From: a virus
Reading direction: 5' to 3' (one strand)
Length of the DNA stretch: 56,865 bases
IMG/VR virus record: IMGVR_UViG_3300023489_000004
Coordinates: 1-56,865 of that record
The position numbers and the translations under genes were made by a program. This document shows positions 10,049 to 42,646 of the stretch, piece after piece (the first letter of the stretch is position 1; the number at the start of each line of letters is the position of its first letter). The notes under the pieces were generated by a model. It did no database searches and was not told where the DNA came from. It saw only the letters and a list, made by a program, of their open reading frames with translations.

Positions 10049-10774
10049 ATGCTTCACGGTATTGATATCGCGTCATATCAGTCCGGTCTGAACCTTACTA
10101 CGGTCAAAGGCCAGATTGATTTCGTCGTGATTAAAGGTACTGAGGGTACGAATTACGTAAATCCCTACTGCGATCCACACTTCCAACAGGCGAAGCAAGC
10201 AGGCATCCTCAGAGGCGTATACCATTACGCTAAGGCTGGTAACGCTACCGCAGAGGCAAACTACTTCTGCGATAACTGTATCGGCTACAAGGGGGATGCC
10301 ATCCCGGTTCTTGACTGGGAAGAGAAGCAATCAGTCGCCTGGGTTAACGAGTGGGTCAAAGTCGTCCGTAGCCGCTGGGGGGTCTCCCCGATCATCTATG
10401 CAAATCCTTGGCGATTCAATCAAGGTGGCGTGGATAAGGAATGCGGACGATGGGTCGCTTCGTATCCAGCAGTATCTCACCCAACTTTCAAAATGGCCGA
10501 ATCGTGGGATTGTCCTGATGTAGACGGACTTGTTTGCATGTGGCAATTCTGCTCTGACGGTCGACTAAACGGCTATAATGGCAATCTTGATGCTGATCTC
10601 TTTTATGGAGACGCAAACGCCTGGGATGCCTATGCTGGAGTAAAGCCTGCTCAGACTCCCCAGCAACCTACAGCCAAACCTGAGCAACCATCGAACCAAG
10701 ATTCTTCGGACGATACAATTATCATCTCGAAGGGCGACGGTTCAAATCCTACTAAGTACAAGAAAATTTCTTAG
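10049..10774 (+). CDS. Endolysin, glycoside hydrolase family 25 muramidase
   Basis: HGIDIASYQ...DFVVIKGTEGTNYVNP...GVYHYA is a classical GH25 N-terminal signature. The C-terminus is Pro/Gln-rich with no recognisable wall-binding domain. Confidence 0.85.
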   Translation: MLHGIDIASYQSGLNLTTVKGQIDFVVIKGTEGTNYVNPYCDPHFQQAKQAGILRGVYHYAKAGNATAEANYFCDNCIGYKGDAIPVLDWEEKQSVAWVNEWVKVVRSRWGVSPIIYANPWRFNQGGVDKECGRWVASYPAVSHPTFKMAESWDCPDVDGLVCMWQFCSDGRLNGYNGNLDADLFYGDANAWDAYAGVKPAQTPQQPTAKPEQPSNQDSSDDTIIISKGDGSNPTKYKKIS

Positions 10775-12766: not shown

Positions 12767-13114
12767 ATGGTTCTTGACGACAAGACATATAAGGTTGCTA
12801 AGTATGTTACTAACATTGTTCTTCCTGCTATTGCTACTCTGTATCTGGCCATTAGCGGCGTTCTGGTCCAGGGTGGACTTCCTGGTCTACCTTATCCTGA
12901 TGTTGTGGCTGGTGTTATTACTGCTGTAGTAACCTTCCTCGGTACTATCCTTCATATTTCTTCGAACAATTATACTGGTCAGGGTGAGCTTACCGTCGAC
13001 GAGTCTAAGAACGAAGATGATGAGGACAAGTATCAGCTCGTTCTGCATGAGGATCTCCCCTCGTTGGCTAAGAACGATAAGTTCGTAGTGACGGTCAATA
13101 AGACGCAGAATTAA
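12767..13114 (+). CDS. Holin (phi-LC3/Dp-1-like family) with C-terminal acidic extension
   Basis: KVAKYVTNIVLPAIATLYLAISGV...VITAVVTFLGTILHIS matches the two-TM pattern of Phage_holin_1-type holins. Strong RBS. Confidence 0.65.
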   Translation: MVLDDKTYKVAKYVTNIVLPAIATLYLAISGVLVQGGLPGLPYPDVVAGVITAVVTFLGTILHISSNNYTGQGELTVDESKNEDDEDKYQLVLHEDLPSLAKNDKFVVTVNKTQN

Positions 13115-13127
13115 CACATGCTATAAT
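13103..13127 (+). promoter_or_regulatory. Early-type promoter motif (CGCA-N14-TATAAT)
   Basis: ACGCAGAATTAACACATGCTATAAT, with the same 14-nt spacing as the other copies. Confidence 0.5.
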
Positions 13128-13155: not shown

Positions 13156-13473
13156 ATGGATATTTTCACCGAAGCAATTAATGGTATTAAGACGTTCTTT
13201 GCTAATCCGTTGGACGACGAGATCAATTCGGTTTATGAAGAGATGGCTTACGAGCATAGTGATACGGACAAGTATACGAAAATGTTGGATAACTTAGAGA
13301 AGCTCGAGAGGATCAAGAGTAACCAGAAGTTTAAGCTGGACTTTGATTTCTCCGGCATCGCTAAGGAATTCGTCAAGATCGGCGGTTCGTTACTTTGCAT
13401 CGTAGCTATCAAGAAGATTGAAGACGAGATCGCTTTGACTGGTAAAGCACCGATGTTTATTCCGAAATTCTAG
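13156..13473 (+). CDS. Hypothetical protein with C-terminal TM segment
   Basis: ATG 6 nt after TTGAAAGGA and downstream of the promoter at 13103. The track's upstream ATG at 13126 overlaps the -10 hexamer (13122-13127), upstream of the expected start site. Confidence 0.55.
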   Translation: MDIFTEAINGIKTFFANPLDDEINSVYEEMAYEHSDTDKYTKMLDNLEKLERIKSNQKFKLDFDFSGIAKEFVKIGGSLLCIVAIKKIEDEIALTGKAPMFIPKF

Positions 13474-13510
13474 TTGAAGTATTTTTAGTATTTATTAGAA
13501 CGACTCCTGA

Positions 13511-13550
13511 AAAGGATATGCCGCGTAGATTATACGCCATATCCTTTTTT
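13511..13550 (+). terminator. Intrinsic terminator
   Basis: AAAGGATATG..GCGTA/TACGC..CATATCCTTT stem followed by T-run. Confidence 0.7.
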
Positions 13551-13552
13551 GC

Positions 13553-13577
13553 TCGCGAGAATTTCACACGGTATAAT
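13553..13577 (+). promoter_or_regulatory. Early promoter P1 (TCGCG-N14-TATAAT)
   Basis: CTCGCGAGAATTTCACACGGTATAAT; about 40 nt nearly identical to P2 and P3. Confidence 0.6.
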
Positions 13578-13583
13578 AGAAGG

Positions 13584-13662
13584 AGATAGGCGAACTATCT
13601 TAAATGTAAGATCGAATCAGAGCAAAATCTGACTTAGATCTACGTCCTTCTTTTTTTTTTTT
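13584..13662 (+). ncRNA. Candidate short phage RNA 1 (~79 nt)
   Basis: No ORF (ATG-TAA only). Hairpins AGATAG/CTATCT, GTAAGATC/GATCTAC and CAGA/TCTG, then GTCCTTC followed by T12. Confidence 0.35.
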
Positions 13663-13667
13663 ATCGC

Positions 13668-13692
13668 TCGCGAAATTTTCACACGGTATAAT
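13668..13692 (+). promoter_or_regulatory. Early promoter P2
   Basis: CTCGCGAAATTTTCACACGGTATAAT. Confidence 0.6.
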
Positions 13693-13698
13693 AGAAGG

Positions 13699-13798
13699 AG
13701 AGATAAAATGCCACGCCATTTTGGTAGGTATCCGGTATTAAAACGAGCGCCGTTATTGCTAGCGGAAGGTGTAATTAGCAACTCTTTCTTTTTTTTTT
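13699..13798 (+). ncRNA. Candidate short phage RNA 2 (~100 nt)
   Basis: Hairpins AAAATG/CATTTT and TTGCTA/TAGCAA, then CTCTTTC followed by T10. Confidence 0.3.
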
Positions 13799-13803
13799 AT
13801 TAT

Positions 13804-13828
13804 TCGCGAAAATATCACACGGTATAAT
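13804..13828 (+). promoter_or_regulatory. Early promoter P3
   Basis: TTCGCGAAAATATCACACGGTATAAT. Confidence 0.6.
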
Positions 13829-13834
13829 AGAAGG

Positions 13835-13910
13835 AGATAATTGATTAGGAAGTTGAGATTATCTTAAACGTAGCATTATGCTTGTGCTATATCCTTCTTT
13901 ATATTTTTCA
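13835..13910 (+). ncRNA. Candidate short phage RNA 3 (~76 nt)
   Basis: Hairpins GATAAT/ATTATC and TAGCA/TGCTA, then TATCCTTCTTTATATTTTT. Confidence 0.3.
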
Positions 13911-14001
13911 GATGGTTGAATCATAGACTCTGGTAAGTAGTATTATCTCACCATTTGCTTTTTTGTAAAAATATTTTACAACTATTGAAAGGAGTATCAC
14001 T

Positions 14002-14310
14002 ATGTTAATGAAGGATTTGGAAGGTACAAAAATAAAAGTTCGGTCAAGGCTGTATCAACAGTTGTTATTCGCTTTTTTGAACAAAAAAAAAAAAGAAAGA
14101 GATCCTGTCTACAAATCAGCAAGTAGTAAAGCACGATCAGAAGAGTATGACAAATGGTATAATAGTGTTAAACGAGAGTACGACAATCTTACTCTACAAC
14201 AACTCTTAGACAAGTTAAACATTCAACGCCCTGAAGAAATTAAGCAATTTAGGTGTTGTGGAGACGGGACCGTTGCAGAATTAAAAAAGCTATTGAAAGG
14301 AATCGAATGA
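14002..14310 (+). CDS. Hypothetical protein (Lys-rich; contains an A12 homopolymer at 14083-14094)
   Basis: ATG after TTGAAAGGAG; 102 aa. Confidence 0.6.
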   Translation: MLMKDLEGTKIKVRSRLYQQLLFAFLNKKKKERDPVYKSASSKARSEEYDKWYNSVKREYDNLTLQQLLDKLNIQRPEEIKQFRCCGDGTVAELKKLLKGIE

Positions 14311-15076: not shown

Positions 15077-15268
15077 ATGAATGACGAAGAGCGTCTATGG
15101 TTGGTTCGTTGTCCCTTATGTGGTAAAGCGATAGCCTTGGCTACTATATTAGATATGTATGATCAAAGCTTCTGGTGTAGTAACTGTTCACGAGGAGTTT
15201 ATATTGATCCACTACGCCCACAACGAGTAATACCTCGCAGAAAAAATACATCGTATAATGACATATAA
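15077..15268 (+). CDS. Small zinc-ribbon protein
   Basis: CPLCG...CSNCS pairs; RBS AAGGAG. Confidence 0.6.
   Translation: MNDEERLWLVRCPLCGKAIALATILDMYDQSFWCSNCSRGVYIDPLRPQRVIPRRKNTSYNDI
15235..15259 (+). promoter_or_regulatory. Early-type promoter motif (CGCA-N14-TATAAT)
   Basis: TCGCAGAAAAAATACATCGTATAAT, inside the 3' end of the upstream ORF. Confidence 0.5.
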
Positions 15269-15289
15269 AGACTTTTGAAAGGAGTCGTA

Positions 15290-15502
15290 ATGGAACTTAC
15301 ACGAGACGAGATTCTTATTCTCATTGATCATTACACCAATCTTAAGTTTGACATTGAGAATCGTATGACCGAATTCGAGAGAGATTGTATCAATCTTCTT
15401 GATGACGATCTGTTCAACACTCAACGCAAACGTTACAAGAACATGCTAGATGGGTATAAGATTCGCATCGGCGAGTTACAAACCGAACTTGACATTCTTT
15501 AG
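15290..15502 (+). CDS. Small coiled-coil protein (paralogue family with 15567, 15908 and 25258)
   Basis: ATG after TTGAAAGGAG; the track's TTG start lies inside the RBS. Confidence 0.6.
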   Translation: MELTRDEILILIDHYTNLKFDIENRMTEFERDCINLLDDDLFNTQRKRYKNMLDGYKIRIGELQTELDIL

Positions 15503-15511
15503 TTTGTCATG

Positions 15512-15550
15512 GAGAAGAGTTTATAGAAATATAAGCTCTTCTCTTTTTCT
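15512..15550 (+). terminator. Intrinsic terminator
   Basis: GAGAAGAG...CTCTTCTC followed by TTTTTCTT. Confidence 0.6.
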
Positions 15551-22745: not shown

Positions 22746-22980
22746 TATTACTTTCGAACCGTTATACAAAAGCTATTCAGACAAAGAAGTTATCGGTAGT
22801 CTTTGTCATATTAGCGATCCAAAGATGACCATCGGTTATAAGGACGGACGTTATTGGGGATCTGCTCGTAATGGCGGCATTACGACTCCTATCGATGAGA
22901 AGAGATTAGCTACGATTATCAAGATTCACAAACTTGACGTACTTCTTCCTTCTGAGTTTGAGTCGTATTCGCAGAAATAG
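22726..22980 (+). CDS. Hypothetical protein
   Basis: RBS AGGAGAG; 84 aa. Confidence 0.55.
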   Translation: MQETKCNITFEPLYKSYSDKEVIGSLCHISDPKMTIGYKDGRYWGSARNGGITTPIDEKRLATIIKIHKLDVLLPSEFESYSQK

Positions 22981-22992
22981 TACAGGCTATAA
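22968..22992 (+). promoter_or_regulatory. Early-type promoter motif (CGCA-N14-TATAAT)
   Basis: TCGCAGAAATAGTACAGGCTATAAT. Confidence 0.45.
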
Positions 22993-23019
22993 TAGACTGG
23001 ACAATGAAAGGAGTCTATT

Positions 23020-23223
23020 ATGTACATGTCTGTGTCAGATCAATACTTTTGGGAATTCATTCTTGTTATTTCAATTGGTATTACTTTCGCATTTTGGTAC
23101 ATCAAAGGAGTTATTGACGACAAAATGAAGGAACAGTACCGACTTGGATTTTACGAAGGATATGATAAAGGATGGTATACGTGTCGTGACATAATGTGGG
23201 ATACATCAGACGAGAAAAATTAA
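23020..23223 (+). CDS. Small membrane protein
   Basis: GAAAGGAG RBS; one TM helix. Confidence 0.55.
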   Translation: MYMSVSDQYFWEFILVISIGITFAFWYIKGVIDDKMKEQYRLGFYEGYDKGWYTCRDIMWDTSDEKN

Positions 23224-23234
23224 TCTAGTCAAAT

Positions 23235-23269
23235 AGGGGTCAAGAAAAATCTTGACCTCTTTATTTTTT
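23235..23269 (+). terminator. Intrinsic terminator
   Basis: GGGGTCAAG-AAAAAT-CTTGACCTC followed by TTTATTTTTT. Confidence 0.7.
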
Positions 23270-23288: not shown

Positions 23289-24098
23289 ATGGTAAACTTT
23301 GACGTTATTAGGAGTGGCATGGAGAAACATTCCCCAGCAATTCTAACAGGACTCGGAATTATTGGAATCGGATCGACTGTTGTATTTGCAGTACGAGCAA
23401 CCCCTAAAGCACTTGATCTTATCGATGATGCGTATTTGGATAAGGCACACTGTGATCACGATGAAATGCTATATGGCATGGGGGGAGGAGAACCCGTTAT
23501 TAGCCATAAGCTTGAATTTTTGGGAGTCCGCGACACCGTAAAGGCAACATGGAAGTGCTATATTCCTGCAGCCGTAATGGGAGCCTTCACAATTGCATGC
23601 TTTATCGGATCAAATCGAGTAAGTGCTCTTCGAACTGCAGCGCTTAGCAGTGCATATTCTATGACTGAGAAAGCTCTTAATACATACGAGCAGAAAGTCA
23701 TTGATATTCTTGGAGCTGATAAGAACGAAGAGATCCGAGAAGCAATTGCACAAGATCAACTTGATTCTTCTACGGACGTTGTGATTCCAACATATAGCAC
23801 TGGAACGGAGCTTTGTTATGACACGATCACTGGTCAATATTTTTGGAGTGATAAAGAAAAGATCAGAGCTGCCGTAAATGATTTTAACAAGGTTCTTATC
23901 GGAGACATGTATGCTGATAAGAACGAATGGCTCCTTACGGTTGGCGAGAATCAAGTAAAAGACGGCCATCTTGTAGGTTGGAGCATTAGCAAACTGTTAG
24001 ATATTGATATTAAGTCTCTAGTTGCTCCGAATGGAAAACCCTGTTTAGCTATTGATTATTATACCCTTCCTTCTCCGGATTTCCGTCGCGAATTTTAA
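23289..24098 (+). CDS. Membrane-anchored protein, paralogue of 28380..29321
   Basis: Shared N-terminal ..SPxILTxxGxIGxxSTVxxAxxATxK.. helix and LVGW motif. Confidence 0.6.
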   Translation: MVNFDVIRSGMEKHSPAILTGLGIIGIGSTVVFAVRATPKALDLIDDAYLDKAHCDHDEMLYGMGGGEPVISHKLEFLGVRDTVKATWKCYIPAAVMGAFTIACFIGSNRVSALRTAALSSAYSMTEKALNTYEQKVIDILGADKNEEIREAIAQDQLDSSTDVVIPTYSTGTELCYDTITGQYFWSDKEKIRAAVNDFNKVLIGDMYADKNEWLLTVGENQVKDGHLVGWSISKLLDIDIKSLVAPNGKPCLAIDYYTLPSPDFRREF

Positions 24099-24110
24099 AC
24101 ATCCTATAAT
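24086..24110 (+). promoter_or_regulatory. Early promoter motif
   Basis: GTCGCGAATTTTAAACATCCTATAAT. Confidence 0.55.
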
Positions 24111-24142
24111 GAAGGGTTAAAGCTATTGAAAGGAGAGCCCTC

Positions 24143-24478
24143 ATGAAGAAGCAGGATATTATGCATTTCTTCGACGAGCACAAAACTGAGCTTATTTGCT
24201 TGGGAGTTGGTATTGGAATTGGCGCTTATGCTATGTATAGGCATCACTTTGGACCGATCTGCCAGGATGTCAGTCATGCTGTTCTAAAAGTTAGCGGAAA
24301 GAATCAAGCTAAGGCAGTAGAGACGTTGACTGGATGGTGGAACGCGGCCGGTGATATGCCTAGTAAGGGCGGAGCTTGCGCGATTCAACCGGCTCCTGTA
24401 GCAAAGGAAGCTATCGAGGGACTGCTCAAAGAAGCTGGAAATGATGATAGTATCATGTGGTGGATTGAGAAACTGTAA
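24143..24478 (+). CDS. Small membrane protein
   Basis: TM helix LICLGVGIGIGAYAMY; has its own promoter and terminator. Confidence 0.6.
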   Translation: MKKQDIMHFFDEHKTELICLGVGIGIGAYAMYRHHFGPICQDVSHAVLKVSGKNQAKAVETLTGWWNAAGDMPSKGGACAIQPAPVAKEAIEGLLKEAGNDDSIMWWIEKL

Positions 24479-24493
24479 ATCGATTTAGCCCAG

Positions 24494-24531
24494 AAAGAGA
24501 TACTAAGAATTCTTAGTATCTCTTTTTTTTT
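24494..24531 (+). terminator. Intrinsic terminator
   Basis: 32-nt perfect palindrome (AAAGAGATACTAAGAATTCTTAGTATCTCTTT) followed by T-run. Confidence 0.8.
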
Positions 24532-24882: not shown

Positions 24883-24907
24883 TCGCGAAAAAATAACATC
24901 CTATAAT
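24883..24907 (+). promoter_or_regulatory. Early promoter motif
   Basis: TTCGCGAAAAAATAACATCCTATAAT; the next 47 nt are identical to 27670-27720. Confidence 0.55.
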
Positions 24908-24939
24908 GACATGGTATATTTAGTTGAAAGGAGTTTACC

Positions 24940-25182
24940 ATGGCTGACGAGAAGAACGTTCAGGTTGAAGCTGACGAGGTAGTCGAGGAGAAGACTGATA
25001 AGAAGTTTGATATTCCGTTCCCCGCTAAGGTTGTTCTTGTCGCCGGAGCAGGCATCGCTGGTGTTGCTCTGGTGGCTTGGGCAATCTGCTCGGGAAAGGG
25101 AAAGCAAGTTTCCGAGGTCGCTGAGGCTGCTAAGGAAGTCCTTCCCGAAGTTACAGAAGAAGCTGTGAAAGCTGCGATCTAG
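24940..25182 (+). CDS. Small membrane protein
   Basis: Acidic N-terminus followed by TM VVLVAGAGIAGVALVAWAI. Confidence 0.6.
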   Translation: MADEKNVQVEADEVVEEKTDKKFDIPFPAKVVLVAGAGIAGVALVAWAICSGKGKQVSEVAEAAKEVLPEVTEEAVKAAI

Positions 25183-25199
25183 CAATTCGCACATGTCTT

Positions 25200-25234
25200 T
25201 AGAGACGCTAAGAAAACTTAGCGTCTCTATTTTT
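25200..25234 (+). terminator. Intrinsic terminator
   Basis: AGAGACGCTAAG-AAAA-CTTAGCGTCTCT followed by ATTTTT. Confidence 0.8.
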
Positions 25235-25257: not shown

Positions 25258-25443
25258 ATGATTAAGCTTTCGGATTTTGAACTCCACTCACTAATAAACA
25301 TATATCAAGATGCATTGGACACGTTGACAAAAGCTCGAGACGAGTACTGGTATTCGGAAGAAGACCTAGTACATTTCGATAAAAATATTTCAGCTTTGGA
25401 AGATCGAATTGAACTACTCTCGCGAGAATTAAACGCCCTATAA
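25258..25443 (+). CDS. Small coiled-coil protein (paralogue family with 15290, 15567 and 15908)
   Basis: MIKLSDFELHSLINIYQDALDTL. Confidence 0.55.
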   Translation: MIKLSDFELHSLINIYQDALDTLTKARDEYWYSEEDLVHFDKNISALEDRIELLSRELNAL

Positions 25444-25444
25444 T
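25420..25444 (+). promoter_or_regulatory. Early promoter motif
   Basis: TCGCGAGAATTAAACGCCCTATAAT; the TATAAT contains the upstream stop codon. Confidence 0.55.
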
Positions 25445-25476
25445 GAAGGTGTTATTCTCTTGAAAGGAGAACTATT

Positions 25477-25743
25477 ATGAACTGGAAAATTATCGAGACT
25501 GTAGGAAGCATCGTTGGATCGATCGCTGGCTATCAGACTGCTGCTACAATTATCGAGGCATTCATTCCAGCTACTGCATCAGTATTTAAGAAGAGTTCTA
25601 TGCTGATCGGAGCTACTTTGATTGGTTCGATTGTTGGTGGTAAATGCATGGATGAGGCTTATGATCAGATTCGATCGATTAAGTATTTCTACGAGCACGC
25701 CGATTTCACCAAGTTCTTTGGTAAAAAAGTAAAAGAGCACTAA
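25477..25743 (+). CDS. Small membrane protein
   Basis: Two hydrophobic segments; has its own promoter and terminator. Confidence 0.6.
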   Translation: MNWKIIETVGSIVGSIAGYQTAATIIEAFIPATASVFKKSSMLIGATLIGSIVGGKCMDEAYDQIRSIKYFYEHADFTKFFGKKVKEH

Positions 25744-25748
25744 CACAG

Positions 25749-25784
25749 AATAATAGGAGCTAATTAGCTCCTATTATTTTTTTT
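25749..25784 (+). terminator. Intrinsic terminator
   Basis: AATAATAGGAGCTAATTAGCTCCTATTATT followed by T-run; near-copy of 27965. Confidence 0.8.
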
Positions 25785-27665: not shown

Positions 27666-27682
27666 AAATCACATCCTATAAT
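27658..27682 (+). promoter_or_regulatory. Early promoter motif
   Basis: ACGCGTAAAAATCACATCCTATAAT. Confidence 0.55.
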
Positions 27683-27714
27683 GACATGGTATATTTAGTT
27701 GAAAGGAGTTTACC

Positions 27715-27951
27715 ATGGCTAAGCAGAACGATAAGACTATCGGAGAGATTCTTGATGATATGGAGTTTCGCGAGAAGATCTTTAAGTACGCCAAGATTGG
27801 AGCCTTTTTAGGTGTAACAGGATTGTTCATCTACTTTAAGGGTTACACTCTGGGTGTTCCTTATGGATACGGAATGGCACTCAATGATATTAAGACCACT
27901 TTTCCTGAAATCTTTGAAGAGCTATTAAAAGCCACGATGACTGTTAAGTAA
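27715..27951 (+). CDS. Small membrane protein
   Basis: TM IGAFLGVTGLFIYF; its promoter and 5'UTR duplicate those of 24940. Confidence 0.6.
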   Translation: MAKQNDKTIGEILDDMEFREKIFKYAKIGAFLGVTGLFIYFKGYTLGVPYGYGMALNDIKTTFPEIFEELLKATMTVK

Positions 27952-28379: not shown

Positions 28380-29321
28380 ATGAATTTTTCGAATGCTATT
28401 CAAACTGCTAAGTTCGCAATTGGACGAGGTGGTCTTGTTCTGAAGAAGTATAGTCCGGAGATCCTTACCGCTGCTGGTGTTATCGGCACGGTAGGTTCGA
28501 CGGTTCTCGCCTGCAAGGCTACTTTGAAGGTTGAGGATATTCTCGACGAGGCTAAGAAGAAGTCGAATCTCATTAATGCTGTCCATAATGGCGAGATTGA
28601 GGTAGACGCTGAGTATACTGACAAGGATTATTCTAAGGATCTGATTGTCAACCGCACCCAGACTGCTGTAAAGCTTATCAAGCTCTATGGTCCTGCTATT
28701 ACTCTCGGTGCTCTCTCGATTACAGCTATTCTCGGCGGTCAGCATATTCTCCGCAAGCGTAATGTTGCAGTCATGGCTGCTTATAAGCTTTGTGAGGAGA
28801 GCTTCAATAATTATCGTTCTCGCGTTAAGGATGAGCTTGGCGAGGAGAAGGATCGCCAGTTTTATTATGGCATGACCGAGGAGACCGTCAAGGATAAGGT
28901 GAAGTCTAAGGACGGTAAGACCAAGACTGTCACTAAGAAGGTAGAGAAGGCTCCGGATCATCTGTATTCTCAGTACGCTCGTTTCTTCGACGAGGCTAAT
29001 ATTAATTGGGATAAGTCTCCTGAGCAGAACATGTATTTCCTTAAGATGGTCCAGAATCAGATGAACGATAAGCTCAAGGCCCGTGGTCATGTATTCTTGA
29101 ACGAGGTATATGACGCGCTCGGTTTCGATCGTTCCGAGGCCGGTCAGCTTGTCGGTTGGGTTTGGGATAAGGACAATACGGCGATGGAGGCCGGAGATGG
29201 ATATATTGACTTCGGTATTTTCGACGGTAGCGACTATGCTAAGCGTGCTTTCGTCAATGGTGATGAGCGTTCTATCCTCTTGGATTTCAATATTGACGGT
29301 ATGATCTACGATCTTATTTGA
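28380..29321 (+). CDS. Membrane-anchored protein, paralogue of 23289..24098
   Basis: See 23289; the C-terminal RGHVFLNEVYDALGF...LVGWVW block looks conserved. Confidence 0.6.
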   Translation: MNFSNAIQTAKFAIGRGGLVLKKYSPEILTAAGVIGTVGSTVLACKATLKVEDILDEAKKKSNLINAVHNGEIEVDAEYTDKDYSKDLIVNRTQTAVKLIKLYGPAITLGALSITAILGGQHILRKRNVAVMAAYKLCEESFNNYRSRVKDELGEEKDRQFYYGMTEETVKDKVKSKDGKTKTVTKKVEKAPDHLYSQYARFFDEANINWDKSPEQNMYFLKMVQNQMNDKLKARGHVFLNEVYDALGFDRSEAGQLVGWVWDKDNTAMEAGDGYIDFGIFDGSDYAKRAFVNGDERSILLDFNIDGMIYDLI

Positions 29322-31486: not shown

Positions 31487-34400
31487 TTGGACTTTTATCG
31501 TATACGGCAGACAATGATCAAAAATCAGGGCCTCAAGATATTTCCTGACTTTCGAATCGGAAGCTATAGGGATTTCATGGCTCGCGGACATTCGTTCTAT
31601 GCTGTCTGGGATCCTAATACTGGTTTGTGGTCTCAGAACGAATTGGATATTCAAAGGATTGTCGATGATGATCTAGATCGTCATTATGAGAAAGTTAAGG
31701 ATAAGTTCGAGACAGATATTTTTGTTGAGTACATGAGTTCGTACAAATCCAGTAGTTGGAAGAACTATACTCAATGGGTTAAGACTCTTCCGGATCAGTA
31801 TCATCCTCTTGATACGAAGTTGATATTCTCGAACCAAGAAGTTAAGCGAGAGGATTACGCTAGCAAGAAATTGCCATATCCTCTTGAGGCTGGAGACTAT
31901 AGCGCTTGGGACGAACTGATTGGTACTTTGTATGAACCTGCCGAGCGCGAGAAAATTGAATGGGCAATCGGATCGATCGTTGCCGGAGCAAGTAAGAGCA
32001 TCCAGAAGTTCTGTGTGTTTTATGGCGAAGCCGGAGCCGGCAAGTCAACTATCCTAGGAATCATTGAGGAACTGTTTGAAGGATATTGTGTCAACTTCGA
32101 TGCTAAGTCTCTTGGATCATCGAGGAATATGTTTGCCACGGAAGCATTTAAGTCAAATCCGTTAGTAGGCGTTCAGCACGATGGCGATCTTAGCAAGATT
32201 GAAGACAACACTCTGCTGAATTCGATCGTTTCTCATGAGAACATGTTGATGAATGAGAAGTATAAATCTAGTTATTCTTCTAAAGTTAACGCATTCTTAT
32301 TTATGGGAACGAACAAACCTGTAAAGATTACAGATGCTAAGTCTGGTATTATTCGAAGACTCATTGATATTTCGCCTAGCGGCAACAAAGTTCCAATCAA
32401 TCGATATTTCGAATTGATGAGTCAGATTCGATTCGAGCTTGGTGCGATCGCATATCATTGTCGAGATGTGTTCGAGAATCTCGGTAAGCATTATTATGAT
32501 GCATATCGTCCGGTTAGCATGATGTTCAAGACTGATGTGTTCTTTAACTTTGTTGAGGATTCATATTTGGTCTTTAGTCAGCAACCATGTGTTACCTTGA
32601 AGCAGGCTTATGATATTTACAAAGAGTATTGTCAAGAAGCTAATGTCGAATACAAGATGCCTAAGTATAAATTCAGGGAAGAGCTCAAGAATTATTTCGA
32701 GAACTACTCTGAAAGGGGTCGAGTTGACGACAAGCAAGTCTGGAACATATATTCTGGATTCTTGAAAGATAAGTTTGAACTTATCAAAAAGCTTGATGAC
32801 GGTGCCGGAGAAGAAGAGATTGAAGTAGCAGAGCCTACTAGAATGGCCCTAGAAGCCTCTGAGAGCCTATTTGATGGCATGTTTAAGGATTGTCCGGCTC
32901 AATATGCCTCTTCTAATGAAACACCCCTTGAAAAGTGGTCTGAGGTCTCCACAACCCTTAACGATATTGACACTCACCAGTTACATTATGTTAAGGTCCC
33001 GGAGAATCATATTGTTATTGATTTTGATTTGAAGAATTCAGATGGAGATAAGGACCAAGATTTAAATTTGGAAGCTGCTGCAAAATGGCCTCCGACTTAT
33101 GCAGAGTTTAGCAAAGGGGGTGCTGGAGTACATCTGCATTATATTTATGATGGAGATCCTAAGAAACTCAGTCGAGTATATTCTGAGGGTATTGAGATCA
33201 AAGTCTTTACTGGGAATAGTTCGTTGCGTAGACGTTTGAGCAAATGTAACGATCTTCCCATTGCCCATATTTCTAGTGGGCTTCCCTTGAAAGGAGAGAA
33301 AGTGATTAATTTCAAAGCTGTGAAAAGCGAGCGATCACTTCGAGAGCAAGTAACAAGGAATCTTAATAAGGAGATTCATCCCGGAACCAAACCGAGTGTC
33401 GACTTTATTTATAAGATTCTTGAAGATGCGTACAAGAGTGATCTTAAGTATGATCTTACTGACATGCGTCCGAAGGTTCTCGCATTCGCTAACAATAGCT
33501 CACACCAAGCGGATTATTGTGTTCGACTTGTAGCCAAGATGCATTTTAAGTCTGAGAATTATGAGAGCGATCCGTCTATTGATTATGACGATCAGAGAAT
33601 CGTATTCTTCGACGTTGAGGTATTTCCTAATCTGTTCCTGATTAACTGGAAGTATGCCGGAGAAGATACGACATGCGTTCGTATGATTAATCCTACGCCT
33701 TCTGAAGTCGAACAACTTATTAAGATGAAGTTAGTTGGCTTCAATTGTCGTAGGTATGATAATCATATTCTGTATGCTCGATATCTCGGTTACAGCAATC
33801 TCGAACTTTATAATCTGAGTCAGAAGATTGTTAACGGTAGTCGAAATGCTTTCTTTGGCGAAGCGTACAATATTTCGTATACTGACGTGTATGATTTTGC
33901 TTCCGCTGCTAATAAGATGAGTCTTAAGAAGTGGGAGATTAAGCTCGGAATTCATCACCAAGAGTTGGGTCTTCCTTGGGATCAGCCGGTTCCTGAAAGC
34001 AAATGGGTTCAGGTTGCAGAGTACTGTGACAATGATGTTATTTCTACTGAGGCAGTCTTCAATCATTTGAGTGGTGACTGGGCTGCACGACAAATTCTTT
34101 CCAAGATCTCCGGACTTAGTGTAAATGATACGACCAACCAGCATTCCACTAAGATTATCTTCGGGAATGATCGTCATCCTCAGGGCAAATTTGTATATAC
34201 TGATTTGTCTGAGATGTTCCCGGGATATACTTTCGATCACGGAAAGAGTTATTATCGTGATGAGCTAGTTGGCGAGGGCGGATACGTTTACGCCAATCCT
34301 GGAATGTATACAGATATTGCATTGCTCGATATTGCGTCCATGCATCCGAGTTCGATTGAAGCATTGAATCTGTTTGGTCCATATACTCAGAGGTTCAGTG

Positions 34401-37457: not shown

Positions 37458-37482
37458 TCGCGTAAAAATAACATGCTATAAT
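37458..37482 (+). promoter_or_regulatory. Early-type promoter motif followed by a short hairpin/T-tract leader (37483-37530)
   Basis: CTCGCGTAAAAATAACATGCTATAAT followed by AGAAGGAG, as in P1-P3. Confidence 0.5.
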
Positions 37483-37544
37483 AGAAGGAGTAGAATACGC
37501 CTAGGGGCTAAATCTGCTCCTTTTATTTTTCTGAAAGGTTTTTT

Positions 37545-37838
37545 ATGCCAAAAGAAAATTCCTTTCAAGCACAACTCATAAAAGATTTGAAGATACTGTT
37601 TCCTGGGTGCATGGTTTTAAAGAATGATGCAAACTATATTCAAGGGATTCCGGATCTTCTTATTTTGTTTAATGATCGATGGGCAATGCTTGAATGTAAA
37701 CGAACCGAAAAAGCATCGCATAGACCTAATCAGGAATATTATGTTGACCTTCTAGGAAAGATGTCTTATGCGGCATTCATATACCCTGAGAATAGAGAGG
37801 ATATTTTGAATGAACTTCAACAAGCATTACGATCTTGA
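37545..37838 (+). CDS. VRR-NUC-like PD-(D/E)xK nuclease
   Basis: GIPDLLILFNDRWAMLECK...NQEYY. Confidence 0.6.
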   Translation: MPKENSFQAQLIKDLKILFPGCMVLKNDANYIQGIPDLLILFNDRWAMLECKRTEKASHRPNQEYYVDLLGKMSYAAFIYPENREDILNELQQALRS

Positions 37839-38367
37839 GGGTAAACATGCTTTTCTTAGTGCAAGTCAGCACGCTTGGGTTAACTATGATGAAGGCAAGT
37901 TGATTCGAGTATATTCTAATTTGCTGGCTGCAGCTCGAGGAACTAAACTTCATGAGTTTGCTTGTGAAGCTATTAAGTTGGGAGTTCGACTTCCAGATAA
38001 TAAGCAAACTATTAACATGTATGTTAACGATGCTATTGGTTATAAGATGACTCCCGAGTTGGTTCTTAAGTATTCCAATAATGCTTTTGGAACGGCTGAT
38101 GCTCTTTCTTTCAAGAAGGATCTTTTAAGGATTCATGATTTGAAAACTGGTAGATCAAAAGTTTCTATGGTTCAGTTGGAGATCTATGCGGCTCTATTCT
38201 GTCTAGAGTATGACGTAAAGCCAAATGATATTCAGATGGAGTTGCGGATTTATCAATCAAATGAAGTTCTGGTACACAATCCAGATCCTGATGATATTTT
38301 CCACATCGAAGACAAGATTATTTTGTTCGATCAGCGCATTGAAGAACTCAAGCAAGAGGAGGAATAA
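37810..38367 (+). CDS. PD-(D/E)XK (Cas4/RecB-like) exonuclease family protein
   Basis: HAFLSASQHAW N-terminus, GTADAL and IHDLKTG, QLEIYA. Confidence 0.5.
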   Translation: MNFNKHYDLEGKHAFLSASQHAWVNYDEGKLIRVYSNLLAAARGTKLHEFACEAIKLGVRLPDNKQTINMYVNDAIGYKMTPELVLKYSNNAFGTADALSFKKDLLRIHDLKTGRSKVSMVQLEIYAALFCLEYDVKPNDIQMELRIYQSNEVLVHNPDPDDIFHIEDKIILFDQRIEELKQEEE

Positions 38368-41066
38368 TGAACGATGACGAATTAATGCATTATGGTACTC
38401 CTCGACATTCTGGTCGATATCCTTGGGGTAGTGGCGAGAATCCATATCAATCATCCACTGGTCTTTATGGGATGGCCAAACAGCTAAAAAGCCAAGGCAT
38501 GTCTGATAAAGAAATTGCTGAGTCATTCGGCATGAGTACTCGAGAGTATAAATCAGCATATTCTAATGCAAAGAATGAAGTTCGTGCAGCAAATCGTGCT
38601 GAGGCTCTTAGGCTAAAGGATAAGGGATATTCTAACACCGCTATTGGTAAACGAATGGGCGTTAACGAATCTACTGTTCGCAGCTGGATGGATGAGGATA
38701 TTGCTGAGCGATCAAGTATTTCTAAAAACACAGCAAAAGCTTTAAAGAGCGCTGTAGATGATAAGAAATATATTGACATTGGCGGTGGCGTTGAGAATCA
38801 AATGGGTATTTCTCGTACCGCTCTCGATAATGCCGTTAAGATGCTGAAAGATGAGGGTTATACCGTTCATTATATTCAGACAGAACAACTTGGAACTGGT
38901 CATAAGACCTCCATCAAGGTTCTAGCTCCTCCCGATACTACATATTCTGAAGTATGGAACCATAAAGCCGATATTGAGTTTCCTGGATTTCATTCTGAAG
39001 ATAAAGGCCGAACCATTGATAAAATCGGAAAGCCTGTTAGTATTTCCTCTAAACGCATAAAAATTAATTATGCTGAAGAAGGAGGAAAAGACAAAGATGG
39101 TGTTATCGAACTTCGTCGAGGCGTAGATGATATTTCTTTGGGTAAAGCCAAGTATGCTCAGGTTCGAATCGCTGTAGATGGTACCCATTATTTAAAGGGC
39201 ATGGCAATGTATCGTGATGATATGCCAGATGGTGTTGACATTATATTTAACACTAACAAGGCAAAAGGTACTCCCATGCTTGGCGAAAAGGATAATTCAG
39301 TCCTAAAGCCTATGAAGAAAGATCAGGATAATCCTTTCGGAGCAACTATCAAAGGTGAACGAGAGCTTATTCTTGCTCAGCGATATTATACCGACAAGAA
39401 CGGAAAGCGTCAGCAATCGGCAATTAATATTGTAAACGAGGAAGGCGATTGGAATACCTGGCGAAAGAGCTTATCTTCGCAGATGTTATCTAAGCAAAGT
39501 CCTATGCTGGCTAAGAAGCAATTAAAACTCGCTTATGATCTTAAGCAGGATGAGTTTGATAGTATTATGAAACTCGAGAATCCTGTTATTCGCCAGCAAC
39601 TTCTTGATAAATTCGCAGATGGATGCGATTCGGCATCAGTTCATCTCAAGGCCGCTGGTCTTCCTCGTCAAGCATCAAAGGTTATTCTTCCATTTCCTTC
39701 GATGAAAGAAAACGAAGTTTATGCTCCATCATTTCGTGATGGTGAAGAAGTCGTATTAATTCGATATCCTCATGGCGGAACGTTTGAGATCCCTCGCCTT
39801 AAGGTAAACAACAAAGTTCCAGACGCTAAGAAGACACTTCATAATGCTCAAGATGCAATTGGTATTAACGCCAAAGTGGCTGAGCGATTATCTGGAGCAG
39901 ACTTTGATGGCGATACTGTTCTTGTTATTCCTACAAGCACTGCTAAAATTAAAACTTCTAAGCCTTTGGATGGGTTAAAAGACTTCGACCCTCAACGAGA
40001 CTATAAAGCATATCCTGGTATGCCTGAAGTAAAGGGTTCTGGTTTTAATAAACAGCAACAGATGGGCAATGTTTCAAATCTTATTACAGACATGACCATC
40101 AAAGGTGCTACGCCTGATGAATTGGCTCGTGCTGTTCGCCATTCTATGGTTATTATCGATGCTGAGAAACATAATCTTAATTATAAACAATCGGCTATTG
40201 ATAACAATATTGCTGAGTTGAAAAAGAAATATCAAGGCGGAAGCAATCGCGGAGCTTCTACGATTATTTCTAGAGCCAGTGCTACAGCATATGTTCCGGT
40301 TCGTAAGGAAATAACGAACACGAAATATATGACTGACGATGAGAAGAAGCGATATTCTAAAGGCGAAAAGATATATCGCGAAACTGGTGAAACTTATATT
40401 TCTAAGAAGACTGGAAAAGAAGTCAAACGTATTTCTAAATCCACAAAAATGGCCGAGACTTCTGATGCGAATACTTTATCTTCAGGATATTTAATCGAGA
40501 CCGTATATTCTGAACATGCCAATAAATTAAAGGCCCTAGCAAATAAAGCTCGAGCCGAATCTAGGTCTACTGATTATATTCCATATTCAAAAGAAGCGCA
40601 TGTAAAATATAAAGATCAAGTAGACTCTTTGAATTCTAAGCTAAATATAGCATTGAAGAATAGGCCCCTTGAGCGTAAGGCCCAGCTTATAGCTAATGCT
40701 AAGGTTAAGAATGTATATGCGGCCAATCCAGACATGGATTCGGATGATCTAAAGAAGCTTAAAGGTAGGTGCTTAACAGAGGCCCGCTTACAGACGGGTG
40801 CTTCTAAGCAACAGATTAAGATAGAGCCTAAAGAATGGGAAGCTATTCAGGCTGGTGCTATCTCTACCAATAAGCTTAAGTCTATTGTACAGAACTCAGA
40901 CCTTGATGTACTAAAGCAGTTAGCTATGCCTCGTGAGATGCGTGGTGTAACACCAGCACAAGAGTCAAGGATCAAGGTTCTTGAGAGTCGTGGATACACT
41001 CTTGCTGAGATAGCTGATGCTGTTGGTGTGTCTACTGGTACTATTACCAATGTACTGCAAGGATAG
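38367..41066 (+). CDS. Single-subunit two-barrel RNA polymerase (YonO/RdRP-like) with terminal HTH modules
   Basis: Beta-like barrel motif GTHYLKGMAMYRDDMPDGVDIIFN (aa 272-295). Beta'-like barrel VVLIRYPHGGTFEI...AERLSGADFDGDTVLVIP (aa 462-522). HTH-like segments at aa 44-65, 86-108 and 875-899. Confidence 0.75.
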   Translation: MNDDELMHYGTPRHSGRYPWGSGENPYQSSTGLYGMAKQLKSQGMSDKEIAESFGMSTREYKSAYSNAKNEVRAANRAEALRLKDKGYSNTAIGKRMGVNESTVRSWMDEDIAERSSISKNTAKALKSAVDDKKYIDIGGGVENQMGISRTALDNAVKMLKDEGYTVHYIQTEQLGTGHKTSIKVLAPPDTTYSEVWNHKADIEFPGFHSEDKGRTIDKIGKPVSISSKRIKINYAEEGGKDKDGVIELRRGVDDISLGKAKYAQVRIAVDGTHYLKGMAMYRDDMPDGVDIIFNTNKAKGTPMLGEKDNSVLKPMKKDQDNPFGATIKGERELILAQRYYTDKNGKRQQSAINIVNEEGDWNTWRKSLSSQMLSKQSPMLAKKQLKLAYDLKQDEFDSIMKLENPVIRQQLLDKFADGCDSASVHLKAAGLPRQASKVILPFPSMKENEVYAPSFRDGEEVVLIRYPHGGTFEIPRLKVNNKVPDAKKTLHNAQDAIGINAKVAERLSGADFDGDTVLVIPTSTAKIKTSKPLDGLKDFDPQRDYKAYPGMPEVKGSGFNKQQQMGNVSNLITDMTIKGATPDELARAVRHSMVIIDAEKHNLNYKQSAIDNNIAELKKKYQGGSNRGASTIISRASATAYVPVRKEITNTKYMTDDEKKRYSKGEKIYRETGETYISKKTGKEVKRISKSTKMAETSDANTLSSGYLIETVYSEHANKLKALANKARAESRSTDYIPYSKEAHVKYKDQVDSLNSKLNIALKNRPLERKAQLIANAKVKNVYAANPDMDSDDLKKLKGRCLTEARLQTGASKQQIKIEPKEWEAIQAGAISTNKLKSIVQNSDLDVLKQLAMPREMRGVTPAQESRIKVLESRGYTLAEIADAVGVSTGTITNVLQG

Positions 41067-41442: not shown

Positions 41443-41964
41443 ATGCCTGATACGTGGAAGAAAATACCAGGTTTTTCTCAATATTCTGTATCTAGTTCCG
41501 GAGAAGTTCGGAATGATGTACGAGATTTGATAAAAAAGCCGTTTGTCACTAGTAATGGTTACGCAAATGTTGATTTGTATCGAGATGGGAAGAGGTATAA
41601 ATTCCGGGTTCATCGTTTGGTTGGAGAATTATTCGTTCCAAATCCGGACGAATTAGATTTTGTAAATCACAAAGATGGAAACAAACTAAATAACGATTAT
41701 TCCAATTTGGAATGGGTTACGGCTAGTTATAATATGAAACATGCCTATTCTACTGGCTTGGCAAAACCTAGTAAGGGAATGCTTGGAAAAAAGAATCCTA
41801 ATGGTGGTCGAAAAGGACATCCGGTTCGAGTAATTGAGACTGGCGAAGAATTTCCCAGTATTACTGCTTGTGCCAAAGCCATTAACGGAAACGATAGGCA
41901 TATTTGCGATTGTTTATCTGGTCGTCAATCTTTTCATAAAGGATACTCGTTTGAATTGATTTAA
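41443..41964 (+). CDS. HNH homing endonuclease (NUMOD4 plus HNH_3 type)
   Basis: WKKIPGFSQYSVSSSGEVRN...HRLV...VNHKDGNKLNNDYSNLEWVT. Confidence 0.8.
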   Translation: MPDTWKKIPGFSQYSVSSSGEVRNDVRDLIKKPFVTSNGYANVDLYRDGKRYKFRVHRLVGELFVPNPDELDFVNHKDGNKLNNDYSNLEWVTASYNMKHAYSTGLAKPSKGMLGKKNPNGGRKGHPVRVIETGEEFPSITACAKAINGNDRHICDCLSGRQSFHKGYSFELI

Positions 41965-41967
41965 AAA

Positions 41968-42054
41968 GCCGGAATGGCGGAATTGGCATACGCAGGAGAC
42001 TTAAAATCTCTCGTCATATTTGACTTGTGGGTTCGAATCCCACTTCCGGCACCA
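41968..42054 (+). tRNA. tRNA-Leu (anticodon UAA), type II with long variable arm, CCA encoded
   Basis: Acceptor GCCGGAA/TTCCGGC. Anticodon stem GGAGA/TCTCT with loop CTTAAAA. Variable-arm stem GTCA/TGAC. T-arm GTGGG-TTCGAAT-CCCAC. Confidence 0.85.
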
Positions 42055-42073: not shown

Positions 42074-42646
42074 ATGCTACTTGAAGATACAGCAATCAAG
42101 TTTAAGTCCCAGTACAAGAATTTGATTGTTCCTTTTAACGAGAATCAACTTCAGCCTTGTAGTTATGACTTGACTCTCGATAAAGATCTACTAACGTTCG
42201 AGTTTGCATCGAATTCGTGTCCGCCCGATGCATTTATTACGGCTTATGACAAGCAAGTTCATGGTATCGATTACCAATCGATCGATCTTTCTACTCTCAA
42301 AGATGAGATCTATGTTCTTCAGCCGAATCAGTTTATCATTGCTTCAACGCAAGAGACGGTAAACATGCCGGATGACATTGCTGGCCGCTTCGAGGGAAAG
42401 TCTTCTCTCGGTCGTCTTGGACTCACCACCCATGTTACGGCAGGTTTCATTGACGCTGGTTTCTCAGGTCAGATCACACTCGAAATGAAGAACGAGAATC
42501 GCTTTCCCATTTGGATTAAGCGAGGAATGAAGATTGGGCAAATCTGCTTCTTCAAAATGAATGGTCGAGCAAGGCATCCGTATGGATCCGAAGGTCTCGG
42601 CTCACATTACAACAATCAAAATGGACCAACTCCCGCAAGGTCTTAA
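42074..42646 (+). CDS. dcd: dCTP deaminase (dUTPase superfamily)
   Basis: QPCSYDLTL...GRFEGKSSLGRLGLTTHVTAGFIDAGFSGQITLEMKN. Confidence 0.8.
   Translation: MLLEDTAIKFKSQYKNLIVPFNENQLQPCSYDLTLDKDLLTFEFASNSCPPDAFITAYDKQVHGIDYQSIDLSTLKDEIYVLQPNQFIIASTQETVNMPDDIAGRFEGKSSLGRLGLTTHVTAGFIDAGFSGQITLEMKNENRFPIWIKRGMKIGQICFFKMNGRARHPYGSEGLGSHYNNQNGPTPARS
42615..42629 (+). promoter_or_regulatory. Late-region motif copy (ATCAAAATGGACCAA)
   Basis: Exact 10-mer core in the 3' end of dcd, 186-195 nt upstream of the putative small terminase gene (start GTG 42801 or 42810). Confidence 0.3.

Follow-up and report, generated by a model that had tools for sequence, protein, structure and literature searches.

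Shuffled non-coding cassettes behind a repeated promoter block at the late/early boundary of a siphovirus-type genome: candidate small-RNA modules

The window in this study covers positions 1 to 56,865 of IMG/VR virus record IMGVR_UViG_3300023489_000004, from the siphovirus-type genome of an uncultured gut phage, with all genes on the plus strand. Between its late and early regions lies an array of three tandem units, each formed by a near-identical promoter block, an insert and a T-run. Comparison with relatives demonstrates that the units are shuffled cassettes, not fixed parts of the genome, which goes beyond the preliminary description of this region, made from the letters of the window. 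Whether they are three autonomous small-RNA modules, or "morons", behind a family promoter seems to us evenly balanced. The array is composed as follows.

Promoter block 1, 13553..13577, plus strand: TCGCGAGAATTTCACACGG TATAAT; the family consensus is TCGCgaAAatat.ACAtgc TATAAT
Putative RNA of unit 1, cassette type A, 13578..13662, plus strand: 5' arm AGAAGGA, hairpin GAGATAG/CTATCTT, long hairpin at 13603-13645
3' end of unit 1, plus strand: box TCCTTCT at 13645-13651, T12 at 13651-13662
Promoter block 2, 13668..13692, plus strand: TCGCGAAATTTTCACACGG TATAAT
Putative RNA of unit 2, cassette type B, 13693..13798, plus strand: 5' AGAAGGAGAG pairs with 3' CTCTTTCT (13782-13789, one G.U), T10 at 13789-13798
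Promoter block 3, 13804..13828, plus strand: TCGCGAAAATATCACACGG TATAAT
Putative RNA of unit 3, cassette type C, 13829..13908, plus strand: two hairpins, box TCCTTCT at 13892-13898, tail TTATATTTTT

The three near-identical blocks, already seen in the preliminary description, were recovered both by repeat finding and by exact search. The 23-mer TCACACGGTATAATAGAAGGAGA has three exact copies, starting at 13564, 13679 and 13815, and no further match in the window even at three mismatches, the number expected from shuffled sequences being zero. The wider part, TCGCGARAA..TCACACGG, begins at 13553, 13668 and 13804; together with the preceding T-run the repeat family covers 49 nucleotides at 82-100% identity, with spacings of 115 and 136 nucleotides. 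As had been claimed, each block is followed by unique, ORF-poor sequence (ORF, open reading frame), here measured at 70-105 nucleotides, then by a YCYTTCT-type box and a T-run: TCCTTC and T12 (T-run at 13651-13662), CTCTTTC and T10 (13789-13798), and TCCTTC and TTTATATTTTT (13892-13908). The ORF list of the window contains no credible ORF in the array, and the first gene indeed starts only after the third unit, at 14002. The sole frame with a Shine-Dalgarno (SD) sequence and ATG is that of unit 2, at 13708, which passes through the T-run into the next promoter.

Relatives were gathered in three ways: from IMG/VR, by a metagenome scan, and as contigs encoding the flanking 105-residue protein. 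The identity of this protein is 95-99% in the IMG/VR relatives and 77-85% in more distant ones. About 20 complete arrays from these relatives show 19 different compositions of one to four units, built of RNA cassette types A-F and H, sometimes mixed with small protein-coding cassettes (p) under the same promoter type; with type G there are at least eight types.

One-unit arrays: D; E; F; H
Two-unit arrays: B-A; B-E; F-D; F-A; p-A; p-B; p-F
Three-unit arrays: A-B-E; A-B-C; F-B-A; p-B-A; p-A-F
Four-unit arrays: p-p-F-D; p-B-F-D
Array of contig L151: A-B by the automatic split, p-A'-B by eye, a tRNA-like stretch without a promoter separating A' from B

A single cassette may occupy the first, the middle or the last slot. 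The internal T-runs range from T7 to T14, and it is always to the same downstream flank that the last unit is joined. Judging by these patterns, the cassettes are most likely exchanged by recombination in the constant junctions of about 50 nucleotides. Type H comes from a more distant relative and type G from a separate gut lineage. Type C was seen only in this window and has no match in IMG/VR; it is a diverged relative of type A, sharing with it the motif TATCTTAAAYGTA and matching the type A covariance model with 23 bits (E = 0.03). In three other lineages (L085, L098, L113) a single non-coding unit is situated between the late terminator and the first early gene.

One of the protein-coding cassettes, in L005, encodes 69 amino acids; its homologues are found only within this phage group, and no name or Pfam family could be assigned to it. 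The promoter-less stretch, located after type A in both L151 (about 2390-2540) and L154 (about 1470-1620), has a tRNA-like T-arm (CCGGTTCGAATCCGG) and a hairpin resembling an anticodon arm; it is called by neither ARAGORN nor Rfam.

The preliminary description placed hairpins in every insert. This holds for units 1 and 3, with two hairpins each: the fold of unit 1 has a minimum free energy of -20.8 kcal/mol (z = -2.4 relative to shuffles), and that of unit 3 is weakly more stable than shuffles (z = -1.15). It does not hold for unit 2, whose fold is no better than shuffles (z = -0.35). Structural conservation in relatives, proposed in the same description as a check, was likewise obtained in part. 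For type A, RNAalifold applied to six variants yields 20 pairs, none of them broken (120/120 cells paired). Two pairs change in a compensatory way, A-U to G-C, and two through wobble, U-A to U.G and C-G to U.G; all remaining changes are at unpaired positions, that is, in hairpin loops, bulges and internal loops, and only 3/500 shuffles are equally good. In type F, 5/5 variable columns are in the hairpin loop or wobble-compatible, which is consistent with the structure. Type B provides no such evidence, and type C is a single sequence. On the opposite strand the G.U intermediates of types A and F would become A.C mismatches; the structure therefore appears to be formed in plus-strand RNA or plus-strand single-stranded DNA.

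The blocks behave as promoters, as the preliminary description had supposed, and belong to a promoter family. The motif TCGC(G/A)(G/A)A-N13-TATAAT, with a conserved ACA near -17, has 11 copies in the window. The TATAAT hexamers of the three units are at 13572, 13687 and 13823, and those of the other eight copies are at 13122, 15254, 22988, 24105, 24902, 25439, 27677 and 37477. Each of these eight is situated 12-25 nucleotides upstream of a GAAAGGAG Shine-Dalgarno sequence and the start codon of a protein gene. Promoter-gene-terminator modules follow one another along the early region, with strong hairpin and T-run terminators at 15511, 23235, 24492, 25200 and 25747. Two copies of the family outside the array and the early modules are the following.

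Promoter-family copy, 13104..13127, plus strand: precedes the last late-region gene, 13156-13473
Short (basal) unit, 37458..37530, plus strand: TCGCGT-N13-TATAAT-AGAAGGAGTAG...CTGCTCCTT-TTATTTTT, directly upstream of an endonuclease-exonuclease-polymerase operon

The modules of the early region span 15235-15544, 22969-23260, 24086-24527, 24883-25229 and 25420-25780, and in their terminators the 5' arms are rich in purines and the 3' arms in pyrimidines, e.g. AGAAAGAGATACTAAG/CTTAGTATCTCTTTTT. The promoters at 24902-24950 and 27677-27725 share an identical leader of about 45 nucleotides (TATAATGACATGGTATATTTAGTTGAAAGGAGTTTACCATGGCT...), which suggests a duplicated promoter, leader and gene start. 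In the short unit, AGAAGG is followed by a conserved (T)AGAATACGC, also seen in many metagenome relatives. TCGCGA was also compared with the Spo0A, CodY, LexA and cre boxes, and fits none of them.

The operon behind the short unit consists of a small endonuclease (37545-37838), a Cas4-like exonuclease (37810-38367) and, as its last gene, a polymerase.

YonO/RdRP-like single-chain RNA polymerase, 38367..41066, plus strand: 899 amino acids, GADFDGD (two-barrel polymerase motif) at residue 512

The protein matches phrog_4291 over its full length (E = 0) and has helix-turn-helix (HTH) / sigma70_r4 (sigma-region-4-like) domains at both ends; a sequence search of PDB with it gave no match. Koert et al. 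regard the protein of about 900 residues as a putative RNA polymerase of the YonO/RdRP-like type and its gene as the signature of a supercluster uniting actinophages, Lactococcus 1706-like phages and Faecalibacterium phage FP_oengus; no promoter is described there (bioRxiv 10.1101/842583). Nor did our literature search find a paper describing promoters of this polymerase family.

The motif and the polymerase occur together. The metagenome scan with the pattern TCGCGA-N13-TATAATAGAAGG returned 66 loci, most of which share a consensus beyond the pattern, namely an A-rich stretch and CA at a fixed position. At 35 loci the motif lies upstream of an operon of the small endonuclease, the Cas4-like exonuclease and the protein of about 900 residues, and the association is observed at 35/35 informative loci and, with lineage-specific variants of the motif, in four cultured phages.

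Arthrobacter phage Mudcat: CGCTAGAATTACACGGGGTATAATGAGGGAGAG, before the polymerase operon
Streptomyces phage Scap1: ACGCAG-N13-TATGAT-AGAAGGGAG, before the polymerase operon
Gordonia phage Rickmore: CACGTAATGCATGGGTTATAACGGATAGGGCG, before the polymerase operon
Faecalibacterium phage FP_oengus, four copies: CGCGAAAAAnnCAnnnnnCTTTATGG(A/G)(A/G)GG, before the polymerase operon

Two further copies lie at the late/early boundary of Mudcat. The polymerase is also encoded by Lactococcus phage P162, where the motif was not found in the stretch read. The hexamer of FP_oengus, CTTTAT, lacks the -11 A, and that of Rickmore is not a proper TAnnnT; neither is sigma-70 competent. A block of about 30 nucleotides kept across phages of different phyla, Firmicutes and Actinobacteria among them, fits a conserved phage protein better than host sigma factors. 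The YonO-like polymerase is the simplest candidate for the enzyme that reads, or at least specifies, this promoter.

In every cassette type, AGAAGG after TATAAT is complementary to the box before the T-run, with G.U where the box is CTCTTTCT; the complementarity of 5' AGAAGGAG and 3' TCCTTCT, pointed out in the preliminary description, was confirmed for each of the three units. In types D, F, B and G it reaches into the cassette-specific sequence (GATAAT/ATTATC, GATC/GATC, GAG/CTC), and the GATAAT/ATTATC pairing of the type D variants contains G.U in L001 and L067 and G-C in L012. In unrelated phages, FP_oengus included, the short forms with a captured hairpin mostly pair at least the GG of AGAAGG with CC at the U-run. 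Because pairing of AGAAGG with the 3' box recurs throughout the cassette types and in the majority of the short forms folded, the 5' arm is likely part of the RNA, whether transcription starts right after TATAAT or the RNA is a read-through product.

Pairing in the RNA was expected to depend on the start site, and folds from +1 and +7 do differ in the closing stem. With a start right after TATAAT, a closing stem abutting the U-tract is formed in all seven folded sequences (types A-F), and with a start at +7 it is kept only by D, F and, weakly, B. A purine run directly follows the hexamer in all lineages: AGAAGG, GAAGG, GGAAGG, GGGGGG or GAGGGAG. In promoters of the T7/SP6 type the conserved block continues into the start site. 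From these patterns a start at or near +1 is favoured.

The reading of the units as autonomous modules would then be as follows. A module starts with TCGCGA, 13 nucleotides, TATAAT and the purine run AGAAGGAG, and would be read or specified by the phage YonO-like polymerase, with transcription beginning at the purines directly after TATAAT. Each module would give a non-coding RNA of 75-105 nucleotides with cassette-specific internal hairpins, and its 5' AGAAGG(AG) would pair with the 3' (C)YCYTTCT box to form a closing stem against the U-tract, where transcription would stop. The RNA parts would be interchangeable cassettes, swapped via the constant junctions of about 50 nucleotides. The RNAs would act in trans as accessory products at the onset of the early programme, in host take-over, counter-defence or inter-phage competition; such roles are suggested by the diversity and reshuffling of the cassettes and by their position at the head of the early region beside small accessory protein cassettes.

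Phage morons, a concept of Hendrix and colleagues, are reportedly autonomous promoter-gene-terminator inserts. Like them, the units have their own promoter and T-run end, lie between conserved genes, are present or absent in close relatives and are mixed with protein-coding units. Unlike them, the array has several units in tandem, would carry a payload of structured non-coding RNA, and would use the RNA 5' end as an arm of the terminator stem.

Several observations weigh against this account. The TATAAT hexamer is a perfect sigma-A -10 box. A start seven nucleotides downstream of it loses the closing stem in A, C and E; the last hairpin is then separated from the U-run by 4-7 nucleotides and would terminate poorly. 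The 3' complementarity of types A, C, E and H is limited to +1 to +6/7, with a local hairpin from +7, and this resembles a sigma-type start with a terminator acting on upstream transcripts only. Intrinsic-terminator geometry at the unit ends needs the AGAAGG/CCUUCU closing stem around an enclosed loop of 60-90 nucleotides, and a stem of 6-7 bp over such a multi-branch loop would be a weak terminator. A simple terminator scan of 12.5-15.5 kb did not call any of the three unit ends. Of the proposed insulation of the units by terminators, the modular, T-run-bounded organisation stands, and termination at the unit ends would depend on the closing stem. Type B shows no covariation, with four broken cells.

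Database searches likewise found no target, known RNA family or function for the inserts. The array with 12 kb around it has no DNA match in GenBank phages, and the cassette cores have none in phage or plasmid collections. Rfam 15 gave no match at the gathering score and, permissively (E up to 10), only chance-level matches in the window and four relatives. ARAGORN found no tRNA in any array. The longest antisense matches in the phage genome are 11-12 nucleotides (E about 0.1 or higher), that is, at chance level, and the search for a host against the genome collection also gave chance matches only.

A different reading, which we consider possible but distinctly short of even, is that the array is a stacked cis-acting leader, attenuator or insulator, in which a standard promoter is followed by a promoter-proximal hairpin and U-run and the stack has been duplicated. 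Either a leaky terminator would damp expression, or transcription would start about seven nucleotides after TATAAT, so that own transcripts, without the 5' arm, escape, while upstream transcripts are stopped. The inserts would then belong to the leader, and the RNAs would be by-products like the 6S RNA of phage lambda. At lambda PR'-tR' the promoter is closely followed by a terminator, and the short 6S RNA results unless the polymerase is modified (Q antitermination). The array resembles this arrangement in having a promoter and then a close putative terminator, with TCGCGA between the -35 and -10 positions like the Q-binding element. It differs from it in that no Q homologue was identified, the motif is repeated 11 times, mostly without a terminator, the operon is early and not late, and the inserts are diverse.

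The short form is found between promoter and gene in all lineages examined. In the single-unit lineage L113, no promoter other than that of the unit is visible for the first early gene; single-unit lineages of this kind fit a leader better than a separate gene and count against autonomous modules. Further, the 3' complementarity of A, C, E and H coincides exactly with the stretch that a sigma-type start would leave untranscribed. However, the leader explanation leaves at least eight unrelated structured inserts, kept and reshuffled with compensatory changes, unexplained. In D, F and B the closing stem passes +7, and own transcripts would be stopped too. In Rickmore the entire hairpin is at or after +7, which makes escape impossible there and speaks against a general escape design. 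Finally, transcription from promoters one and two of a stack would never arrive at a gene.

A bolder form of the small-RNA reading, which we hold tentatively and regard as rather improbable, sees in the array a highly variable set of RNA effectors acting in trans, which could be decoys or guides against host defence or rival phages, and would be expressed at the onset of the early programme from the cognate promoter of the YonO-like, HTH-fused polymerase. On this view TCGCGA-N13-TATAAT-purine run would give the enzyme family its first promoter consensus, kept from phages of gut Firmicutes to actinophages of soil, with the start directly after the hexamer and the end at the closing stem and U-tract.

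The preliminary description compared the blocks with tandem strong early promoters such as T7 A1-A3. Plain tandem host sigma-A promoters of this kind, with the T-runs as UP elements, the inserts as spacers and read-through into 14002, now appear unlikely. All three unit promoters have a perfect sigma-A -10 hexamer, TATAAT, the T-runs are at about -37 to -48 of the next promoter, and the array, like A1-A3, is a group of three tandem promoters heading the early region in the direction of the genes. Yet in a consensus scan the unit promoters have neither a sigma-70 -35 box (the sequences are TTGCTC, TCGCTC and TTATTC) nor a TGn extension, and T-run ends lie between them, unlike in A1-A3. Sigma-70-type promoters show no enrichment, with 60 found and 57 expected. 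The upstream T-run is absent at other copies of the promoter, and the last unit has the same box and T-rich tail with no promoter after it. Nor does this explanation account for RNA structure preserved by substitution patterns, or for a motif shared by phages with a YonO-like polymerase across host phyla, with the non-canonical CTTTAT in FP_oengus. The class II and III promoters of T7 have a conserved block of about 25 nucleotides running into a purine start. Being tied to phages with their own polymerase, the array promoter resembles these more than A1-A3.

Even less probable is a replication element, in which short RNAs from tandem phage-polymerase promoters beside AT-rich tracts would prime DNA synthesis. 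The primary origin of T7 contains the phi1.1A/B promoters, and the tandem phage-type promoters and T-runs at a module boundary invite this analogy. But unit number, order and content vary freely among near-identical phages, unlike an origin, and the iteron-like repeats of the relatives are located elsewhere, upstream of the promoter of the polymerase operon. These dense direct repeats (GTGGCCAAAAA...) are at 1180-1470 of L161 (Mudcat) and 26890-27130 of L159 (FP_oengus), and P162 has iteron-like direct repeats CCCGGATTTTT upstream of its polymerase region (700-1000 of L160); they may be an origin or an array of binding sites. The window has no such region before its polymerase operon because the helicase gene ends at 37454.

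Hardly credible, finally, are micro-protein genes driven by the SD-like GGAG after the promoters (30-39 amino acids in unit 2, 7-8 codons in C, D and E): unit 2 does have AAGGAG, 5-9 nucleotides and ATG, and TTG or GTG follows GGAG by 4-5 nucleotides in types C, D and E, but types A, F and H lack a start codon, the frame of unit 2 shows in relatives about three synonymous and about six non-synonymous nucleotide changes (about 6/9), and its C-terminus is not conserved because past the insert it crosses a T-run of variable length, 7 to 14. The protein-coding reading of unit 2 was rejected on this substitution pattern and the unstable frame.

The array may also be compared with type III toxin-antitoxin loci. 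Their ToxI antitoxins consist of near-identical 36-nucleotide units in one transcript processed by the toxin. The likeness is in tandem non-coding units upstream of a gene; here, in contrast, the promoter is the repeated part, and the RNA parts are mutually unrelated. No toxin family matches the gene after the array (14002), so that the system does not qualify as type III.

The late/early position given in the preliminary description agrees with the gene layout around the array. The lysis cassette, with the endolysin at 10049 and the holin at 12767, follows the tail genes; small early ORFs begin at 14002, and a replication block with polymerase/primase, annealing protein and helicase begins at 31487. 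The large terminase is at 43543. An HNH gene upstream of the terminase region and the cos ends of the relative Mudcat point to a packaging site near 43 kb, which would probably place the array inside the genome and away from its ends. The elements flanking the array are as follows.

Late/lysis operon terminator, 13510..13550, plus strand: AAAAGGATATGCCG...CGCCATATCCTTTT and a T-run abutting promoter 1
Promoter-less hairpin, 13909..13964, plus strand: CAGATGGT...ACCATTTG, then C and T6; the closing element of the array
Palindrome, 13963..13981, plus strand: TTGTAAAA-ATA-TTTTACAA, directly upstream of the SD sequence of the first early gene
First early ORF, 14002..14310, plus strand: 102 amino acids, no known family; missing in some relatives

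The inverted repeat of the late terminator (14 nucleotides, 93% complementary) is kept in all relatives, and it was the only call of the terminator scan, at 13510-13548. Among the lineages checked, the promoter-less hairpin closes the array in that of the window and in the more distant L157. Relatives keep its stem, apart from wobble changes and some mismatches at the stem ends; L157 retains the stem and the T-run but has another loop. The loop holds a weak sigma-A-like TTGAAT-N16-TAGTAT. A candidate minus-strand promoter, TTTACA-16-GATAAT at 13969-13942, was dismissed: its spacer contains a T-run whose length differs between relatives, from T5 to T9. The palindrome, whose arms do not change among relatives and whose 3-nucleotide centre does, is a possible operator or small hairpin. 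Gene 14002 contains an A12 run (14083-14094) encoding poly-lysine, and the relative L006 has A6, an in-frame length difference. Elsewhere in the window, a tRNA-Leu (anticodon TAA, 41968-42054) is flanked by genes for an HNH endonuclease (41443-41964) and a dCTP deaminase-like protein (42074-42646). The early region has two DUF6353 paralogues (23289-24098 and 28380-29321); FP_oengus has three.

Of known phage RNAs, the RNA anti-CRISPRs (Racr) and the viral single-guide RNAs (sgRNAs) and scaRNAs are about 90 nucleotides long, with their own promoter and rho-independent terminator, in variable islands with small accessory genes (bioRxiv 10.64898/2026.06.01.729453). The array RNAs would be similar as small phage RNAs with their own promoter and putative terminator, clustered with small accessory genes, and would differ in having no evident guide/repeat architecture, no adjoining anti-CRISPR homologue and no Rfam match. 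By this analogy, such counter-defence RNAs may be seen as the nearest precedent. For the enzyme, the closest comparison is YonO of SPbeta, a single-chain two-barrel phage RNA polymerase whose mapped start is followed by an unannotated non-coding RNA and then by the late operon; its promoter sequence is not known (PMC5467207). The polymerase of the window is likewise single-chain and two-barrel, but it is a distant, HTH-fused relative (bioRxiv 10.1101/842583).

Taken one by one, the ingredients are familiar: small RNAs of phages, morons and promoter-proximal terminators. No precedent was found, in Rfam or in the literature searched, for tandem exchangeable non-coding RNA cassettes behind a cross-phylum promoter tied to a YonO-like polymerase, or for the RNA 5' end as an arm of the terminator stem. 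The TCGCGA-type motif is a testable promoter candidate for a widespread and little-characterised family of phage RNA polymerases, and the cultured relatives that have it (Mudcat, Scap1, Rickmore, FP_oengus) make the predictions directly testable. The compact promoter with the closing-stem terminator could serve as an insulated expression part. If the small-RNA reading is true, phages carry exchangeable RNA cassettes as they do protein "morons", and abundant gut phages would have RNA-based accessory functions.

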